Source: Escherichia coli
Lineage (GTDB): Bacteria; Pseudomonadota; Gammaproteobacteria; Enterobacterales; Enterobacteriaceae
Assembly: GCF_003334815.1 (NCBI RefSeq)
Contig: NZ_QOWO01000064.1
Direction: 5' to 3' (one strand)
DNA: 8,823 nt
Shown here: one piece after another, positions 1 to 8,823 of the stretch
How positions within the stretch are numbered: position 1 is the first letter of the stretch
Layout of the letters: every line of letters starts with the position of its first letter
Program-made: the position numbers and the translations under genes
The notes under the pieces: model-generated
Told to the model about the DNA's origin: nothing
Database searches by the model: none
What the model saw: the letters and a program-made list of their open reading frames with translations, nothing else

Positions 1-46
1 AACGGTGAACAATATCACCCTGGGTAAGTATCCGGAGGCGAAATGA
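1..46 (+). CDS. 3' end of a CbtA/YeeV-family toxin gene (partial; 5' portion lies outside the window)
   Basis: The frame starting at nt 2 translates TVNNITLGKYPEAK followed by TGA at 44-46. This C-terminal tail matches what I recall for CbtA/YeeV/YkfI/YpjF-type toxins of E. coli CP4-type cryptic prophages. The stop overlaps the next start codon (ATGA at 43-46). Recognition is from memory of a 14-residue tail only. Confidence 0.5.
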   Translation, partial: TVNNITLGKYPEAK

Positions 47-534
47 TGAAACTGGCCCTGACACTGGAAGCCGACAGTGTTAACGTACAGGCACTGAATA
101 TGGGGCGAATTGTCGTTGACATTGATGGTGTTAATCTCGCTGAACTGATTAACATGGTCTGCGATAACGGCTACTCCCTTCGTGTTGTTGATGAATCTGA
201 CCGGACCTCAGCAGACTGCACGCCACCATTTGTTGCCCTTACCGGCATACGCTGCAGTACCGCACATATCACGGAAACGGACAACGCCTGGCTGTACTCG
301 CTGTCACACCAGACCAGTGACTTCGGTGAATCAGAATGGATTCATTTTACCGGTACCGGTTATCTGTTACGTACCGATGCGTGGTCATACCCGGTTCTGC
401 GGCTTAAGCGCCTGGGGCTGTCAAAAACGTTCCGTCGTCTGGTCGTCACACTCATCCGGCGTTATGGTGTCAGTCTCATTCATCTGGATGCCAGTGCCGG
501 ATATCTGCCGGGTTTACCCACTTTCGACTGGTAA
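43..534 (+). CDS. Hypothetical protein of the kind encoded immediately downstream of cbtA-family toxin genes (YeeW-like); family assignment uncertain
   Basis: 163-aa ORF in the six-frame track. Its ATG at 43 overlaps the toxin stop by 4 nt, which is typical of coupled prophage modules. The product looks like a normal mixed-composition protein and resembles proteins I recall downstream of cbtA paralogs. GC about 50-58% by hand count on two lines. Confidence 0.6.
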   Translation: MMKLALTLEADSVNVQALNMGRIVVDIDGVNLAELINMVCDNGYSLRVVDESDRTSADCTPPFVALTGIRCSTAHITETDNAWLYSLSHQTSDFGESEWIHFTGTGYLLRTDAWSYPVLRLKRLGLSKTFRRLVVTLIRRYGVSLIHLDASAGYLPGLPTFDW

Positions 535-550
535 TCCGGAAATTCACAAC

Positions 551-727
551 ATGAAATCATTAACCACGGAAACAGCGCTGGATATTCTGATTACGTGGCT
601 GCAGGACAATATCGACTGCGAATCGGGAATTATCTTCGACAACGATGAGGATAAAACAGGTTCGGCAGCACTGTTGCGCTGTATCGAACAGGCCAGGGAG
701 GGTATCCGTACCCTGCGCCAACAGTAA
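551..727 (+). CDS. Small DUF957-like protein (58 aa)
   Basis: ATG at 551, 16 nt after the preceding stop, translates MKSLTTETALDILITWLQDNIDCESGIIFDNDEDKTGSAALLRCIEQAREGIRTLRQQ and ends at TAA 725-727. It resembles the small DUF957 proteins I recall in CP4-type islands. The track ORF 182..727 is the same frame extended upstream into the 43..534 gene, and I treat that 5' part as spurious. No clear Shine-Dalgarno sequence. Confidence 0.55.
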   Translation: MKSLTTETALDILITWLQDNIDCESGIIFDNDEDKTGSAALLRCIEQAREGIRTLRQQ

Positions 728-778
728 CTTTTGCACCAGAACCAGTGAAGATCACTCACCCGATTTCACTTCCCTGAC

Positions 779-809
779 GTCAGCCTGAACACGGCTGGCG
801 TTTTCATTT
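779..809 (+). terminator. Candidate rho-independent terminator after the DUF957-like gene
   Basis: Stem 779-785 (GTCAGCC) pairs with 793-799 (GGCTGGC), giving 7 bp with one G-U pair, around a 7-nt loop. It is followed by the T-rich tail GTTTTCATTT at 800-809. Confidence 0.45.
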
Positions 810-826
810 ATAAACAGAAAGGAAAA

Positions 827-985
827 ATGATGATGTCAGATACCACACTCTCCCGCCCGGAGGTGGTCAGCGGGCATACGGACGTTATCTATTCCACCTC
901 AGTCTGCCACATTCTGGCTGTACGAAAGAGTACACTGTTGCCAATCGACACAATTATCCGGCATCAAGTAAGCGATATCAGTTAA
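827..985 (+). CDS. Candidate small ORF (52 aa), function unknown
   Basis: ATG at 827 is preceded by AAAGGA at 818-823, a reasonable Shine-Dalgarno spacing. It translates MMMSDTTLSRPEVVSGHTDVIYSTSVCHILAVRKSTLLPIDTIIRHQVSDIS and stops at TAA 983-985. It is absent from the supplied ORF track, presumably for being below the length cut-off, and I do not recognise the family. Confidence 0.25.
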   Translation: MMMSDTTLSRPEVVSGHTDVIYSTSVCHILAVRKSTLLPIDTIIRHQVSDIS

Positions 986-1151
986 CCGATATAGATGGGG
1001 AAGATGCTTTTATCCGGATTGGTTCTATCGCGATGGTGCGAGTACCACTTGATGCAATGGAGCCTGTCGAGGAAGATGACGAGTAACAGAGCTCGGTATC
1101 TCAATCAGGACCTGATTGTCCTGGTTCGATGCCGAAAACCAGTGATTTTTC

Positions 1152-1173
1152 GTGTTGGTATCTGTGTTGGTAT
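1152..1173. repeat. Tandem direct repeat of GTGTTGGTAT (two perfect copies, period 12), with a partial third copy GGTGTTG at 1179-1185
   Basis: Read directly from the sequence: GTGTTGGTAT at 1152-1161 and again at 1164-1173. It lies just upstream of the candidate promoter at 1193-1220. Confidence 0.6.
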
Positions 1174-1192
1174 AGGATGGTGTTGTTTATTA

Positions 1193-1220
1193 TTAACAAT
1201 TTTAAATCATGAGGTTAAAT
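1193..1220 (+). promoter_or_regulatory. Candidate sigma70-type promoter (-35 TTAACA, 16-nt spacer, -10 TTAAAT)
   Basis: TTAACA at 1193-1198 matches TTGACA at 5 of 6 positions and TTAAAT at 1215-1220 matches TATAAT at 4 of 6. Judged by eye only; the predicted start site is near 1227-1230. Confidence 0.2.
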
Positions 1221-1263
1221 CGCATGTTTGAGTCCGGTCTTCGCACCACATCGTATGCAAATC

Positions 1264-1288
1264 GAGTCGCTCAAGGGCGGCTTTTTTT
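1264..1288 (+). terminator. Candidate rho-independent terminator
   Basis: Stem GTCGC (1266-1270) pairs with GCGGC (1277-1281) around the loop TCAAGG, and is followed immediately by a run of seven T at 1282-1288. The stem is short at 5 bp, extendable by A-U and G-U pairs into the T-run. Confidence 0.4.
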
Positions 1289-1636
1289 GTACCTGTGTTT
1301 TCACTACTTTGTTTGCATGTAACGCTGATAATCTAAGAACTTCGGAAGCCCCATTTCCATCAATGATGTTCATTCATCATCCTGAAAATTAAGTAGATAT
1401 AAAACTTCATTGCCTTGGTCTAATGGCACAGAAATAGATTGCATTTGGCGAGTGGCATTCTTAGTGCGTCGTTGTTTAGTCATGAAACGATGCGTAAAAT
1501 TGCTGATTTTATGTGTCAAAGTCCCGCAACCGGAGATGGCCTTACTTCAATGATCAACCACTATTGACGTATCCTTTTAATATCTTGATTCAATTCAGCA
1601 GGTTATCGTCCAAAGTACAGCGAAGAGAGAGAAAAG

Positions 1637-4528
1637 ATGATTGGTACAACACCTTATCATGCGAAATATTTTGCGCATGAACTTTCCATTCTTCATTCAA
1701 ACAATGGGGTGGACCGTCTGTCTCAATCGCTGTTTGATGCAAGCGTAGATCTAAACCCTCATCAAATTGAGGCGGCTCTTTTTGCTATCGAAAATCCGCT
1801 AAGCAAAGGTGTTGTGCTTGCCGATGAAGTTGGTTTGGGTAAAACCATTGAAGCTGGACTAGTGCTTTGCCAGTTGTGGGCTGAAAGAAAACGTAAACTG
1901 TTGATCATTTGTCCTGCTTCACTGCGTCGCCAATGGGCGAGCGAGTTACAGGAAAAGTTCAATCTACCTTCTCAGGTGTTGGACGCGAAAATGTATAGCC
2001 AGCTTCAAAAAGAAGGGATCCATAATCCCTTAAATAATAAATCGATCACTATCATGTCATACCACTATGCTGCTCGGTTAGAAGAGAAATTGGTGGCTGA
2101 AATGTGGGATCTGGTTGTTATCGACGAAGCCCATAAACTGCGTAATGCTCATCGAGAAAGCAACAAAATGGGGCAAGCGTTAAAGCGTGCGCTTGATGGG
2201 CGGAAGAAATTACTACTGACCGCAACGCCTTTACAGAACTCGTTGATGGAACTGTATGGCATGTCGACGCTTATAGATGAACATACCTTCGGCGAAGTTA
2301 AAGCGTTCAGAAAGCAATATATGCAGGCAGATAGCGATATTGCGGAGTTGAAGGGGCGATTGTCGCGTTTTATCAAACGAACTCTACGCAAGAATGTGCT
2401 GGAGTATATCAAGTATACAGAACGTAAAGCGATCACTATTCCTTTCTATCCGAGCGAACAGGAGCAGGATCTTTATGAACGCGTACAAAAATTGCTTGAA
2501 CGTGAGGATAGCTATGCCTTACCAAAACGACACCGGCATCTGACGGGGCTTATACTCAGAAAACTACTTTCCTCAAGTACGAAAGCCGTATTGAATAACT
2601 TGCAGATCCTTAAGACTCGTTTAGAAAGGTTAAAGCTGGAAGGTATCGTTGAAGATGATATGGACATCATCCAACAGATCATAATGGATGATGATCTTGA
2701 AGATGACATCGTTGAAGATGCCGAATCAGTAGCGCCAGATACAGAGTGCAAATCTGTGGATTCAGATGCGCTTCAGGCAGAAATCAATGAGCTGGAATCA
2801 CTCATTGTTAAAGCAGAACAGATTGGCACTGATACCAAATCAAAAGAGTTGCTTTCTGGCCTGGAGCAAGGTTTTGCACAGCTTGCCGAAATGGGGGCTG
2901 CAAAAAAAGTCATCATCTTCACGGAGTCGATGCGAACTCAACAGTACCTTGCACATTTTCTGGAAAACAATGGCTACCAGGGAAAAGTAGTAACCTTTAG
3001 TGGCACAAACAATACACCGCAGGCAAACAAGATCTACCAGCAATGGCGCGAGGAATATCAGGGATCTTCTCGTATTACCGGGTCGGCGCAAATTGATAAA
3101 CGCTCGGCTTTGATCGACCACTTCAAAGATCATGCTGAAATCATGATAGCTACAGAAGCTGCAGCTGAAGGGGTGAACCTGCAATTTTGTTCGCTACTGA
3201 TCAATTACGATTTACCCTGGAACCCACAACGCATTGAGCAGCGTATTGGACGTTGTCACCGATACGGGCAAAAATTTGATGTGGTTGTTATTAACTTCCT
3301 CAATCAGCGAAACCAGGCCGATCAACGCGTTCTTGAACTCTTAACTGAAAAGTTCAGCCTGTTTGATGGCGTGTTTGGCGCATCGGATAGTGTGCTTGGC
3401 AGCATAGAAAATGGTGTGGATTTTGAAAAAAGGATCCAGTCAATTTATGAGTCATGCCGTACCCCCGAGGAGATAGAGCTGGCTTTTGAAAGGTTGCAGA
3501 AAGAGCTGGAAGATGAAATCAATCTCAAGATGCAGAAGACGCAAGAACAGTTGCTTGAGCATTTTGATGAAGATATTCACGATATCCTTAAAATAAGGCT
3601 TGATGAAGCTCGGGAGCGCCTGGATAAAGTCGGTCGTTGGTTTTGGGCCGTGACCTGTCAGCAGCTCAAACAATATGCTGATTTTGATCATGAGCATCAT
3701 CGTTTCACTTTACGTGAATCAGTCAATGAACTGCCTGTCGGGCAGTACCAGCTGTTGCGCAAAGATGGCAGGCAAAATAGTGCGTTACAAATGCAGGATC
3801 ACCACAGTTTTGCATATCGGATCAATCATCCACTGGGTGAGTACGTCATTGACGGAGCTAAAGCCCAGGAGACGAAAACAGCTGAAGTCATCTTCGATTA
3901 CAGTAACCACACAACGAAAGTTTCGGTGGCTGAGCAGCTGAAAGGGCAATCAGGATGGTTAACACTAAATTTGCTTACTGTTGATGCGTTTAACAGGCAG
4001 CAATTTTTAGTCTTTACCGCGAAAACTGACAACGGACGTGTGGTAGATGGTGAAGCTTGTAAACGTCTGTTCAACTTGTCTGCAATAACCAACGAAAAGC
4101 TGGATAATTCGGCAAGTTTAGATGCATTACCTGATGACTTGATCTTACTCAAGAACAGGCAAATTGACGCCAGGCTTGCAGAAGTTTTGGAGCAGAACAA
4201 TGTCCTTTTTGAAGCGGAAAGAGATAAGCTGGAAAAATGGGCTGAAGACATGATCTTTGCGGCGGAAGAAGCATTACGCGATACCAAAATGCAAATCAAG
4301 TCGTTGAAGCGAGAAGCCAGGCTGGCGCAATCGATCGAAGAACAAAAGCAAAACCAGGAAAAGCTTAAGCTCCTGGAACGGCAGCAGAAGCGCCAACGTA
4401 TGGAAATTTTTGACATTGAAGATGAGATCGCCGACAAGCGGGATGAACTCATCAGTGCCCTTGAAGAGCGGATGAAGCAAAAGACGGATATCACCGAGCT
4501 GTTTACCATCCGCTGGAAAGTTATTTAA
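1637..4528 (+). CDS. SNF2-family (DEAH-type superfamily 2) helicase/ATPase, 963 aa; candidate DrmD-like component
   Basis: Motifs are visible in the translation: Walker A GLGKT (nt 1832-1846), motif II DEAH (2123-2134), the SNF2-type motif III TATPLQN, and in the C-terminal lobe motif V IATEAAAEGVNLQ and motif VI QRIGRCHRYGQ (3239-3271). A purine-rich Shine-Dalgarno-like stretch (AGAGAGAGAAAAG) precedes the ATG. GC about 43-47% by hand count. Confidence 0.9.
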   Translation: MIGTTPYHAKYFAHELSILHSNNGVDRLSQSLFDASVDLNPHQIEAALFAIENPLSKGVVLADEVGLGKTIEAGLVLCQLWAERKRKLLIICPASLRRQWASELQEKFNLPSQVLDAKMYSQLQKEGIHNPLNNKSITIMSYHYAARLEEKLVAEMWDLVVIDEAHKLRNAHRESNKMGQALKRALDGRKKLLLTATPLQNSLMELYGMSTLIDEHTFGEVKAFRKQYMQADSDIAELKGRLSRFIKRTLRKNVLEYIKYTERKAITIPFYPSEQEQDLYERVQKLLEREDSYALPKRHRHLTGLILRKLLSSSTKAVLNNLQILKTRLERLKLEGIVEDDMDIIQQIIMDDDLEDDIVEDAESVAPDTECKSVDSDALQAEINELESLIVKAEQIGTDTKSKELLSGLEQGFAQLAEMGAAKKVIIFTESMRTQQYLAHFLENNGYQGKVVTFSGTNNTPQANKIYQQWREEYQGSSRITGSAQIDKRSALIDHFKDHAEIMIATEAAAEGVNLQFCSLLINYDLPWNPQRIEQRIGRCHRYGQKFDVVVINFLNQRNQADQRVLELLTEKFSLFDGVFGASDSVLGSIENGVDFEKRIQSIYESCRTPEEIELAFERLQKELEDEINLKMQKTQEQLLEHFDEDIHDILKIRLDEARERLDKVGRWFWAVTCQQLKQYADFDHEHHRFTLRESVNELPVGQYQLLRKDGRQNSALQMQDHHSFAYRINHPLGEYVIDGAKAQETKTAEVIFDYSNHTTKVSVAEQLKGQSGWLTLNLLTVDAFNRQQFLVFTAKTDNGRVVDGEACKRLFNLSAITNEKLDNSASLDALPDDLILLKNRQIDARLAEVLEQNNVLFEAERDKLEKWAEDMIFAAEEALRDTKMQIKSLKREARLAQSIEEQKQNQEKLKLLERQQKRQRMEIFDIEDEIADKRDELISALEERMKQKTDITELFTIRWKVI

Positions 4529-4548
4529 TTGATTTGAAAGAGAAAATA

Positions 4549-7500
4549 ATGAGTAAGTACAACGAATTAGTTAAGAAGCTAAAAGAAATTTTTCAGATTG
4601 ATCGACCAGAACTGGATTTCGGTATTTATCGTATTTTAAATGCGCGTGCTGATGAAATTAACGACTATCTGGATAATAAGCTGAAGGCCAAAATCCAGTC
4701 TGCGCTGGCGGATGCAGGAAATGCCAATAAATCAGAATTAGAACATCAGTTGCAACTGACAATAAAAGCGGCAACTGATGCGGGTGTAGACCCTGCTGAT
4801 AGCCCAAAAGTACAGGAGCTTAAAAAGCAACTGGCGGCTATGGCATCCGGAGCAAATGAGCATGAAAATGCAGTATTTTCCCATCTGCTCACTTTCTTTT
4901 CGCGTTATTATGACAACGGCGATTTTATCAGCAAACGCCGTTATAAAGGTAATACCTACGCCATCCCCTATTCTGGCGAAGAAGTGATGTTGCACTGGGC
5001 AAATAAGGACCAGTACTACATTAAAAGCGGTGAAAACTTCGCTAATTATTCGTTCAAATTAGAAGACGGTCGTAAAGTTAGCTTTAAATTGCTCGCAGCG
5101 GACACAGCAAAAGATAACCGTAAAGATAATGAATTAGATCGCTGCTTTGTACTTATTGAGCCACATGTTCGTACCAAAATTGATGAAGAAGGCGATGAGT
5201 ACGAACAAGAATATAAGCCAGTAGAAGTGGTGAAAAACTCATCTGTGGTGGACGGTAAACTCGTTGAAACAGAAGAGTTAGTTATTCACTTCGAATATAA
5301 GGCAATGAAAAAGGGCACTAAGCAGGATGCTTTAGTACAGTCCGCCATTTCAACAATTCTGGCAGATAAAACAGTTCAACAGCATTGGGTTGATCTTGCT
5401 AAACGTGCGCCAACAGAAAAGAATCCGTCACGTACAGAGTTGGAGCGTCACCTTACAACTTATACCCAGCGTAATACAGCAGACTACTTTATCCATAAAG
5501 ATCTCGGTGGTTTTTTAACGAACGAACTGGATTTTTATATTAAAAATGAAGTAATGAATCTCGATAATGTGCAAAATGCAGAAGTGTTTGCCAATGTTGA
5601 GAAACAATTGCGCATGATTCAATGTTTGCGTGCTGTTGCGCTGGAACTCATTACATTTTTGGCACAAATTGAGAATTTCCAGAAAAAACTTTGGACTAAG
5701 AAGAAGTTTGTTGTTGGGCATGAGTATCTTGTGTCACTTTCAAATCTATCAGATTCGCTTTACGATAAAATTCGAACTAATAAAGGGCAACATGATGAAT
5801 GGGTTGAGCTTTATGCTGTAAATAAAATTCCTGGATATTCATTTCCATTCACAAAAGATTTCTTGTATAAAAATAATGGTATGATATTGGATACAAAATA
5901 TTTTGATCCGTCATTTAAGGAGGTTTTTTTAACAGAGTTAACTAATGTTGACGATAATTTAGATGGTCTCTTAATTAATTCAGATAATTATCAGGCCATT
6001 AATTTTTTGGAGGGGCGGTATAAGGACTCAATAGACTGTCTTTATATTGATCCTCCGTATAATACTGCGGCTTCAGAAATTTTATATAAAAATGAATATA
6101 AGCACAGCAGCTGGAATTCATTAATGTATGAAAGGATATCTAAAAGCTATAATTTACTGAAAATTTCTGCAATTAATTTTACCGCGATAGATCATGCGGA
6201 ATTATATAATCTTGGTAAGATCAAGGATGAAATCTATGGAGAACAAAACAGGATAGCAGTTGTTACTGTTCAGCATAATCCTAAAGGGCGTAACCAGGCA
6301 AAGTTCTTTTCTGAAAATACTGAGTATATGTTAGTATATGCTAAAGATTTTAATGCTGCTAACTTTAACTCTGTAGCTATCGATGAGGATGTGCTTTTAA
6401 CATTCACAGAACAAGATAATATAGGCCGTTATCGTTGGGAAAACTTTATTCGTGCAAGAACAAGTTGGTCCAGAGCAAATAGACCAAATAACTGGTATCC
6501 TTTATACGTCTCTTCCGACTTAAAATCAATTTCTGTTGATTATGTAGATGGGTATATCGAAGTATATCCTACAACTAAACAGGGGGATTTTTCGTGGAAA
6601 AATATTAAAGAATCATTTGTTGAATTAAATAAAGATAATTATTTTAAAGCTGTAAATGAAAATGGAGAAATAAAAATCTATCATAAATATAGGGAGCAGC
6701 AAGTCTTTAAAAATCTTTGGATTGATAAGAAATATCAGTCTGAGTTTAATGGTACAAATTTACTGAAAAACATACTTGGACAATCACTATTTGATTATCC
6801 GAAATCATTATATGCAGTACAAGATGCAATCAAAATGTCGACACCACACAATGGTATTGTATTGGACTATTTTGCAGGTTCAGGGACAACTTCTCATGCA
6901 GTAATAAACCTTAATAATTCAGATAATCTCTGTATGAAATTTATCAATGTTGAAATGGGTACTCATTTCAATACAGTAGTTATTCCAAGATTGAAGAAAA
7001 TTGGATATTCAAACTTATGGAAACAATGTAAACCAATCGGTAAACCTCAAAAAATGACTATCAAGTATTTGAAACTTGAAAGTTATGAGGATGCTCTTAA
7101 TAATATACAATTACGAAGTTATTCATTGCATCAGGATATTTTCGACATTTTGGTGGAAGATGTAAAATCAGAGTTTGCTCTTAAATATATTTTTGAAAAT
7201 GAATTATTTTATTCACTATTAAATACTGATAATTTCAAAAAACCATTTAACTACGAAATGGATATTGCGACGGATTCCGCCGGTGCCACTGAGCGTAAAA
7301 ACATCGATTTAGTTGAAACTTTCAATTATCTCATTGGCTTACATGTGAAATCCATCGAATCTGATATCGCACGTGGCTATGTGCGTATTGAAGGAACGCT
7401 GCCAACAGGCGAGCGTACCCTTATTCTGTGGCGCGATTGCGACAAGATCGGTTATGAAGAATTGAATAAATATGCCAACCGATTTGATTTGTATGCAAAA

Positions 7501-7653
7501 GAAAACACGTTCGACGTTATCTACATCAATGGCGATCATAACTTACCTACCGCCTTTACCGTTGATGAAGAAGACGGCGAGATTGTTCGTAGCCTGAAAA
7601 TTCGCCAGATCGAACCTGAATTCTTGAACCTGATGTTTGCGGAGGAGGTTTAA
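4549..7653 (+). CDS. Beta-class DNA methyltransferase (N6-adenine/N4-cytosine type, Type III Mod-like catalytic core) with a ~420-aa N-terminal extension, 1034 aa; candidate DrmMI-like component
   Basis: Motif IV DPPY (CLYIDPPYN, nt 6049-6060) precedes motif I FxGxG (LDYFAGSGTT, nt 6865-6891) by about 270 residues, which is the beta-class order with room for a target-recognition domain between them. I place the start at ATG 4549, preceded by AAAGAG; the track starts at an in-frame TTG at 4534, which remains a possible alternative. Only 20 nt separate it from the upstream stop. Confidence 0.88.
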   Translation: MSKYNELVKKLKEIFQIDRPELDFGIYRILNARADEINDYLDNKLKAKIQSALADAGNANKSELEHQLQLTIKAATDAGVDPADSPKVQELKKQLAAMASGANEHENAVFSHLLTFFSRYYDNGDFISKRRYKGNTYAIPYSGEEVMLHWANKDQYYIKSGENFANYSFKLEDGRKVSFKLLAADTAKDNRKDNELDRCFVLIEPHVRTKIDEEGDEYEQEYKPVEVVKNSSVVDGKLVETEELVIHFEYKAMKKGTKQDALVQSAISTILADKTVQQHWVDLAKRAPTEKNPSRTELERHLTTYTQRNTADYFIHKDLGGFLTNELDFYIKNEVMNLDNVQNAEVFANVEKQLRMIQCLRAVALELITFLAQIENFQKKLWTKKKFVVGHEYLVSLSNLSDSLYDKIRTNKGQHDEWVELYAVNKIPGYSFPFTKDFLYKNNGMILDTKYFDPSFKEVFLTELTNVDDNLDGLLINSDNYQAINFLEGRYKDSIDCLYIDPPYNTAASEILYKNEYKHSSWNSLMYERISKSYNLLKISAINFTAIDHAELYNLGKIKDEIYGEQNRIAVVTVQHNPKGRNQAKFFSENTEYMLVYAKDFNAANFNSVAIDEDVLLTFTEQDNIGRYRWENFIRARTSWSRANRPNNWYPLYVSSDLKSISVDYVDGYIEVYPTTKQGDFSWKNIKESFVELNKDNYFKAVNENGEIKIYHKYREQQVFKNLWIDKKYQSEFNGTNLLKNILGQSLFDYPKSLYAVQDAIKMSTPHNGIVLDYFAGSGTTSHAVINLNNSDNLCMKFINVEMGTHFNTVVIPRLKKIGYSNLWKQCKPIGKPQKMTIKYLKLESYEDALNNIQLRSYSLHQDIFDILVEDVKSEFALKYIFENELFYSLLNTDNFKKPFNYEMDIATDSAGATERKNIDLVETFNYLIGLHVKSIESDIARGYVRIEGTLPTGERTLILWRDCDKIGYEELNKYANRFDLYAKENTFDVIYINGDHNLPTAFTVDEEDGEIVRSLKIRQIEPEFLNLMFAEEV
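7641..7648 (+). promoter_or_regulatory. Shine-Dalgarno sequence GGAGGAGG for the third gene, embedded in the last codons of the methyltransferase gene
   Basis: GGAGGAGG lies 7 nt upstream of ATG 7656. The methyltransferase stop (7651-7653) and the next start are 2 nt apart, which suggests translational coupling. Confidence 0.6.
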
Positions 7654-7655
7654 GA

Positions 7656-8669
7656 ATGGCTAAAAAACCGACCACCGGTAAAGCAGTTAAAAAAGAGACT
7701 AACAGCAAGCTGAGCTTTCATAAACAACTGGTTTTAAACCGCTTTATGTTCCATTTTTTCAAAGATGGCACATTGCAAGGTTTGAAGAATCGGTTAGGCG
7801 AGGATCGCTTTGAAGGCATCCATGAAGATGGCCAAAGCTTGTTCTTCCATGAGCTGAGTAACTATTTATTCGAGGTCGATCTAATCGATCTCGATGAACT
7901 GCGTCGTTACGATCTCAATATCGTGCAGCACTGGCAGCAGATAACCGAGCACCGTAATCGTAAAGAAGACACTGTGCTGAACATGAAATATTTTCAGTAC
8001 TTGTCGCTTCTGTTTACCGAGATCTACCTGGACTGGTACTTCAATCGTAAACAGCAATTACTCGATGGGCTAAATAACGAGCTGGCAGCATACAATGCTG
8101 AAAATGATAAAACAGCAAAAGACCGGGCTAATCAGTTCAAATCATATGTTCTGGATGATTTGAATAAATTGGCATACTGGAACGCTACTGGTTCTGGTAA
8201 GACACTGCTATTACATGTCAATATTTTGCAATATTTACATTATTTCCAGAACGGTAATAGCCATCATTATCCGGATAAAATCATCCTGCTTACGCCGGAT
8301 GAACGCCTGTCGAAGCAACATTTAGATGAACTGGAAAACTCAGGGTTTACCCAATACCAGTTGTTCGATAAGAGTAAATCAGCGCCCTTCAAAGGCACGA
8401 TTGAAGTCATTGATATCAATAAACTTGATGATAAAATGGGCGACAAAACTGTTGCCGTTGAGGCATTTGAAGGCAACAATCTGGTCCTGATTGATGAAGG
8501 GCATAAAGGCACAGGAAGTGCTGCTGGTGCCTGGATGCGCCGTCGTGACAAGTTAACTCGTGACGGATTTGCGTTTGAATATTCAGCAACTTTTGGCCAG
8601 GCAGTAGCCGGTGGCAATAATGTGGAGGCAGTTGAAACAGAAATTCAGAAGAAAAAAGCAAAGCTCTGA
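7656..8669 (+). CDS. Helicase-like ATPase containing only the first RecA-like lobe (Type III Res-like / DrmA-like N-terminal region), 337 aa; probably truncated or disrupted
   Basis: Walker A ATGSGKT (nt 8184-8204; GSGKT at 8190-8204), motif II LIDEGH (DEGH at 8493-8504) and a motif III-like SAT (8583-8591) are present. The ORF stops at 8667-8669 with no motifs IV-VI and no arginine-finger region. The following 8670-8732 has stops in all three forward frames. Confidence 0.75.
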   Translation: MAKKPTTGKAVKKETNSKLSFHKQLVLNRFMFHFFKDGTLQGLKNRLGEDRFEGIHEDGQSLFFHELSNYLFEVDLIDLDELRRYDLNIVQHWQQITEHRNRKEDTVLNMKYFQYLSLLFTEIYLDWYFNRKQQLLDGLNNELAAYNAENDKTAKDRANQFKSYVLDDLNKLAYWNATGSGKTLLLHVNILQYLHYFQNGNSHHYPDKIILLTPDERLSKQHLDELENSGFTQYQLFDKSKSAPFKGTIEVIDINKLDDKMGDKTVAVEAFEGNNLVLIDEGHKGTGSAAGAWMRRRDKLTRDGFAFEYSATFGQAVAGGNNVEAVETEIQKKKAKL

Positions 8670-8823
8670 GAGATCCCCTCATAATTTCCCCAAAGCGTAA
8701 CCATGTGTGAATAAATTTTGAGCTAGTAGGGTTGCAGCCACGAGTAAGTCTTCCCTTGTTATTGTGTAGCCAGAATGCCGCAAAACTTCCATGCCTAAGC
8801 GAACTGTTGAGAGTACGTTTCGA

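Follow-up and report, generated by a model that had tools for sequence, protein, structure and literature searches.

Tandem repeats at the leuX end of a CP4-like island in Escherichia coli as probable arm-type sites of a P4-family integrase

Genes at the locus and the repeat pair

The window described here, meaning the whole 8,823-nt stretch of E. coli DNA that was analysed (assembly GCF_003334815.1, contig NZ_QOWO01000064.1), contains the remains of a regulatory gene, a tandem repeat and a defence operon, and it matches E. coli chromosomes. In E. coli 042, the genes annotated to the left of the repeats form the standard right-hand module of a CP4-like island, with Ag43, DUF932, an antirestriction protein, JAB/RadC, DUF987, the YeeU/CbtA toxin-antitoxin, DUF5983, DUF957 and HTH pseudogene fragments; a search of a phage collection returned just a distant partial match to the CP4-like genes. 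At 833-1086 the window retains pseudogene remnants of an Xre-type HTH regulator; in EC291 an intact gene (265 aa) occupies the corresponding position (L131, 1638-2435). This HTH protein was considered as a dedicated binder of the repeats and rejected, because the gene is missing from a second arm subfamily that nonetheless carries the repeats.

To the right of the repeats, the 042 annotation lists an SNF2 protein, a DNA methyltransferase and a DEAD-box helicase, followed by nanS/nanM. The corresponding operon of the window (1637-8665) was assigned by PADLOC to DrmD-like, Type III Mod and Type III Res components. It encodes a DrmD-like SNF2 helicase of 963 aa (PADLOC DrmD, E = 4e-199), a Type III methyltransferase of 1039 aa and a Type III restriction helicase, which places a helicase of the DISARM type beside a Type III restriction-modification pair. 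The last 158 nt of the window (8666-8823) match the end of IS10/ISVsa5 at 100% identity. This element of the IS4 family is found on R100-type plasmids and cuts the Type III Res-like helicase after codon 337; the gene is intact (1126 aa) in 042 and 2017.04.03CC.

The repeats themselves are two perfect copies of the 10-mer GTGTTGGTAT on the plus strand, at 1152-1161 and 1164-1173, the second beginning 12 nt after the first, just as the initial annotation had reported. That annotation also counted a partial third copy (GGTGTTG, 1179-1185), which does not hold up: it starts 16 nt after copy 2 and is conserved in no orthologous arm, and it is taken as chance because it lies outside the 12-nt register and lacks this conservation. 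No further exact copy of GTGTTGGTAT occurs in the window, and copies with at most two mismatches are at chance level (7 against 6.96 expected). Tandem Repeats Finder did not report the pair in the window, the score of two copies of this length being too low. Of windows simulated with a first-order Markov model, 6.2% hold some exact direct repeat that is 10 nt or longer with an offset of 10-15, so that the pair on its own is only marginally unusual. As the pair alone is only suggestive, the case presented below is built on genomic context and comparison.

The leuX-derived core and the arm beside it

When a 211-nt query spanning the repeats was searched, positions 1226-1295 of the window aligned with annotated tRNA-Leu 3′ ends together with their downstream flank, and about 2470 E. 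coli genomes proved to have 1090-1247 conserved as one block. In strain A15, leuX ends with GAGTCCGGCCTTCGGCACCA and continues with CATCGTATGCAAATCGAGTCGCTCAAGGGCGGCTTTTTTT, matching the window. Positions 1249-1292 are the same, letter for letter, as the stretch after the intact leuX of A15, with divergence from 1293 onward; a terminator scan places an intrinsic terminator, like the one of this A15 flank, in the right flank (1249-1290, plus strand), with a stem-loop at 1264-1283 and a T run. Alignment to tRNA-Leu genes and the reading of A15 leuX together identify 1230-1248 (plus strand, GAGTCCGGTCTTCG-CACCA) as a degenerate copy of the leuX 3′ end, which differs from the GAGTCCGGCCTTCGGCACCA of leuX by a C-to-T change at 1238 and one missing G. 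On the strength of this likeness, 1230-1248 is assigned as the direct-repeat core of attR, the right end of a CP4-like island integrated at leuX. The repeats sit inside the island arm, 56 nt to the left of this core; counted from the G of core GAGTCC, the TGTTGGTA core of copy 1 lies at -77 and that of copy 2 at -65. ARAGORN detected no intact tRNA in the window, and Rfam at permissive thresholds found nothing in it, indicating that the window holds no known small RNA or tRNA-like family.

The core copies show a peculiarity of their own. A single G (CTTCG-CACCA), as against the two of leuX (CTTCGGCACCA), is present in 15 of 16 arm-core junctions that were read, the exception being L145; the junctions read include those of the window, L005, L079, L103, L125, L130, L131, L124, L007, L008, L060, L133, L134, L139 and L141. 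The single-G core spans genera and arm families, including a P4-like prophage directly at leuX, and the core of the reference P4 attP has GG. In some core copies (L131, L124 and L007), CTTCGCAC is repeated three to four times. Loss of one G in the junction cores may mark the crossover position or may reflect recurrent damage at the cleavage site. Flanks of tRNA genes were also compared (L004 38524-38722, L006 3025-3225, L129 2701-3000 and L138 491-697). In each leuX or selC integrase family, the CCA end of the tRNA is followed at once by a terminator particular to that family, then by a shared block (gtgcctgaaatccag...) and then by family-specific 12-nt-phased repeats. Sequences to the right of the attR cores in L005, L133 and L134 resemble this shared block, which suggests that stacked, decayed islands lie at leuX.

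Between the repeats and the core lies an AT-rich spacer (1174-1229, plus strand), which is exactly 56 nt long in nine of nine arms compared, from E. coli, Entomohabitans, Lelliottia, Kluyvera and others. Across these nine arms mean identity is 98% in the core and 94% in the repeats, 65% in the spacer and 43% in the outer flank. The 94% of the repeats is partly so by construction, as the retrieval pattern demanded the repeats; the constant 56-nt spacing was no requirement of that pattern. Copy 2 in the orthologous arms reads G[T/C]GTTGGTA[T/C]. Inside the spacer, an IHF-consensus-like site (AATCATGAGGTTA, 1205-1217, plus strand) was noted, and a match to WATCAANNNNTTR with at most one mismatch occurs at the same spacer offset (31) in all nine arms, and IHF may bind there. 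It is this spacer that the initial annotation read as a promoter. Directly to the left of the repeats, the comparison of arms delimits a conserved 32-nt box (CCTGGTTCGATGCCGAAAACCAGTGATTTTTC, 1120-1151, plus strand) in which mean identity is 80% between two arm subfamilies with unrelated outer flanks (43%). The functional arm could have its outer boundary at this box, or the box could be bound by an excisionase. TTCG-N4/5-CGAA occurs within it, and it is similar to the T-arm sequence of leuX, GGTTCGAGTCC; a conserved hairpin was considered for it and dropped, as RNAalifold gave no consensus structure.

The integrase end and related integrases

If the repeats are arm-type integrase sites, the same motif is predicted at the integrase end of the same island, and strain 2017.04.03CC was examined for it. 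This strain is 100% identical to positions 1-8665 of the window and its island is short; the region between leuX and int was located by position, without a motif search. The spacer there reads TACCAACA-ga-TGTTGGTA-caga-TGATGGTA-(21 nt)-TACCAACA and ends 22 nt before the int ATG. Four motif copies, two of which are inverted, thus stand in this int-proximal arm immediately before an IntB-type integrase, and five of the six exact TGTTGGTA 8-mers in 49.9 kb fall at the two ends of the island, with about 1.5 expected in total. The general idea of the initial annotation, that phased repeats of this kind form the site of a multimeric DNA-binding protein, is well supported; the protein with which they can be matched is the tyrosine integrase of the island, at whose end the motif recurs. 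The same leuX-int spacer lies upstream of intB in R13, BL21 and K-12 MG1655, and R13 also has the attR arm. Of 5426 E. coli genomes, 2382 have a similar spacer with the start of int (at least about 80% identical), and in four of these the repeats themselves were read.

The integrase of 2017.04.03CC has an Arm-DNA-bind_3 domain (residues 3-87, E = 8.9e-28), followed by Phage_int_M and Phage_integrase (Pfam). Its gene is cut at the 3′ end by IS3, with the catalytic tyrosine region kept. E. coli 042, the first genome in which the prediction was put to the test, carries the repeats at attR but not at its integrase end, where GAGTATA repeats of the same arrangement precede the leuX integrase. Nor is there a TGTTGGTA cluster at any other place in its 120-kb island, and 042 lacks the cognate integrase. 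As the matching integrase is absent (042) or truncated in some of the strains that carry the repeats, the sites cannot act there with an integrase of the same island. In the present strain the site is probably a relic: its core carries two changes, and the int gene of the identical reference genome is the one cut by IS3.

Related arrangements were sought in other genera. A pattern scan of species-representative genomes gave at least 125 matches; among those listed, 7 have a leuX-type core nearby, the rest being mostly unrelated GT-rich sequence; the leuX-core loci include Entomohabitans, Lelliottia, Kluyvera and an Enterobacteriaceae isolate. Two further arms were found through similarity of spacer and core alone, one in a P4-like prophage with GGGGGCA at -75/-63 and one in another island with TGATGGTA at -78/-66. 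At a tRNA-Arg locus of Pantoea, which came from the pattern scan, GTGTTGGTAT lies at +123, GTGTTGGTAC at +135 and an inverted copy at +166, upstream of a P4-family int whose ATG is at +195, and the motif offsets are identical to those of E. coli. The integrases of Pantoea and E. coli, which have the same motif, are 80% identical in residues 1-64, the arm-binding domain, and 36% identical in the remainder; the leuX integrase of E. coli 042, with its different GAGTATA arms, is 70% identical in the arm domain and 81% elsewhere. A search of E. coli with the Pantoea P′ arm returned solely attR-type or hybrid junctions. Among E. coli DNA, the Pantoea int is matched best by the selC integrase of Nissle, whose repeats read GGGGGTGC; it was rejected as cognate.

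From IMG/VR, 80 P4-family integrase loci were collected (L139-L218), 51 of them with enough upstream sequence. When each locus was scored for its best combination of two direct 9-mers and one inverted copy, the period was 12 nt in 50 of these 51 loci; the score reaches at least 15/18 in 48 of the 51 as compared with 0.5% of shuffles, in which periods spread over 11-13. At least ten arm motif families could be told apart (TGTTGGTA, TGATGGTAT, TGCGGGTA, GTGAGTATA, TGCTGGTAA, TAGGGGTAC, TTGGGGGCA, TTGGTATAC, AAAYGGGTA and TTRAGGATA), and the layout of a 12-nt pair with an inverted copy is kept in all of them. Covariation was assessed among 33 non-identical integrases, which gave 465 usable pairs; the pairs are phylogenetically non-independent and the values descriptive. 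Similarity of motif correlated with identity of the N-terminal domain (Spearman 0.55, and still 0.55 with the effect of the rest of the protein removed) and less with the rest of the protein (Spearman 0.22, falling to -0.21 with the N-terminal domain removed). Judged by these sequence comparisons, motif specificity follows the arm-binding domain, and the set of arm motifs could be mined for a recognition code of Arm-DNA-bind_3.

Interpretation and comparison with known systems

The repeats are very probably arm-type sites for a heterobivalent P4-family (IntB-type) tyrosine integrase, in the int-distal P arm of the attR of a CP4-like island at leuX. By analogy with lambda and P4, the N-terminal Arm-DNA-bind_3 domain of the integrase would bind the GTGTTGGTAT repeats and the matching repeats next to int, while its C-terminal domains would bind the core at the leuX 3′ end. 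With a host bending protein, probably IHF, acting at the AT-rich spacer, a single integrase would be able to bridge arm and core, and the bridged complex would excise or integrate the island. Physical binding, the role of IHF and the need for these sites in recombination are all expectations from this analogy.

The main rival reading is that a different recombination protein uses the same DNA, the repeats being sites for a directionality factor (an AlpA/Vis/Xis-type excisionase) and not for the integrase. Directionality factors usually bind direct repeats spaced by roughly one turn of the helix (PMC7498355), and the 12-nt phasing is compatible with this; CP4-like islands encode small HTH proteins, and a 68-aa protein of the 042 island has a weak, below-cutoff match to an excisionase family. 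We nevertheless regard an excisionase as unlikely, because the motif stands on both arms, when excisionase sites usually sit on one, and in both orientations, reaching up to the int start codon as the attP arm repeats of P4 do, and because it tracks the N-terminal domain of the integrase; 50 of 51 loci have the arrangement ahead of int. A chance or slippage duplication without function would fit with the frequency of comparable repeats in simulated windows and with there being two copies only, yet the distance to the core stays at 56 nt across genera despite a diverged spacer, and the same motif recurs at the other end of the island and at the Pantoea integrase. A replication iteron, one of the possibilities raised in the initial annotation, would call for three or more phased copies beside an initiator gene or origin; the locus has only two copies, no initiator gene in the window or its annotated neighbourhood and no origin features nearby. 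Chance duplication and iteron together are thus given very little credence.

Position alone could also suggest a regulatory site, with the repeats as operator of a promoter near 1186-1220 from which a small transcript or the DrmD/Type III operon would be expressed, since they lie upstream of an AT-rich stretch and the operon is on the same strand. Several elements of this proposal, made in the initial annotation, did not stand up to inspection. A consensus scan gave no sigma-70-like site on the plus strand between 1174 and 1640, with overall counts at shuffle level, so the candidate promoter was not recovered; what had been taken for a downstream transcript (1226-1290) corresponds to the displaced leuX 3′ end and a terminator like that after the intact leuX in A15; and the terminator (1264-1290) plus about 450 nt separate the repeats from the operon start at 1637. 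Gene content beyond the arm varies from strain to strain. Apart from the DrmD/Type III operon, which lies just outside attR, the same arm is followed by a membrane-protein gene (L005), by remnants of a phosphorothioate-dependent restriction gene with an HNH gene (L007 and L131), by IS21 and a type II methyltransferase (L008), or by another integrase with its own GCGGGTA repeats (L130). Because the repeats adjoin at least five different downstream gene sets, they are not read as an operator of the defence operon, and regulation of either the small transcript or the operon seems highly improbable.

Read as arm-type sites, the repeats show where a mobile island ends and do not regulate the defence operon beside it, which corrects a tempting misreading. 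The right end of the island is fixed to within a few bases, and the DrmD/Type III operon falls outside it, in a variable region beside attR. For P4-family integrases a simple rule emerges, namely two direct copies 12 nt apart and one inverted copy just upstream of int, which could help to annotate island ends and to pair integrases with attachment sites; the understanding of site-specific recombination is unchanged. A bolder extension, which we hold to be doubtful, is that the attR arm with its single-G pseudo-core would still be a recombination substrate, usable by IntB/P4-family integrases acting in trans, and would make a cassette-exchange hotspot of the region to the right of the core. If this were true, defence modules such as the DrmD/Type III operon would be swapped just right of the core, and the near-universal 1-nt deletion in the core would mark strand exchange and not decay.

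The closest known system is the satellite phage P4, whose record (NC_001609) is annotated with a 20-bp attP core and 12-bp "attP arm sequence repeats". P4 and the island of the window share the leuX target, a core starting with GAGTCCGG and the integrase family. The int-distal tandem pair of P4 also has a 12-nt period and lies 53 nt from GAGTCC, at -75/-63, as compared with 56 nt and -77/-65 in the window, and the AT-rich spacers are alike when compared by eye. On the int side, P4 has a second tandem pair and an inverted copy overlapping the int start, where islands of the window type have four copies, two of them inverted. The two also differ in motif, GGGGGCA(C/T)A in P4 and GTGTTGGTAT or TGATGGTA in the island, and in size, P4 being an 11.6-kb satellite and the present element a large CP4-like island. 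The P4 sites are said to have been defined by Pierson and Kahn in 1987 and by Cali in 2004. P4 Int is reported to repress its own promoter through DNA binding there (PMC2951348, PMC7286903), with which the inverted copy just before the int ATG would fit.

Among pathogenicity islands, PAI II-536 has a P4-like integrase specific for leuX (PMC3202238). It and other leuX islands resemble the island of the window in this integrase type and in flanking direct repeats derived from the leuX 3′ end; the literature searched yielded no description of arm-type sites for PAI II-536 or these other islands, nor of the present motif or of IntB arm sites. Lambda Int has arm-type sites P1, P2 and P′1-P′3, with IHF sites. 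As in lambda, the arm sequence at the present locus differs from the core, a bending-protein site would lie between the two and arm sites stand on both sides of the core. The differences from lambda are the family of the arm-binding domain, here Arm-DNA-bind_3, the number and spacing of sites, and the target, here the end of a tRNA gene. The general scheme of heterobivalent integrases, in which arm and core are bound together with a bending protein between them, is described for this class (PMC2951348). The same source reports that the P′ sites of KplE1 IntS overlap the intS promoter and act as an operator for autoregulation of the integrase (PMC2951348). KplE1 is similar in that arm sites lie between the tRNA gene and int, which agrees with the position of the inverted copy, 22 nt ahead of the intB-type ATG; it differs in that the copies in the window are at the opposite end of the island, away from any int promoter. 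Set beside these systems, the feature is a textbook kind of element.
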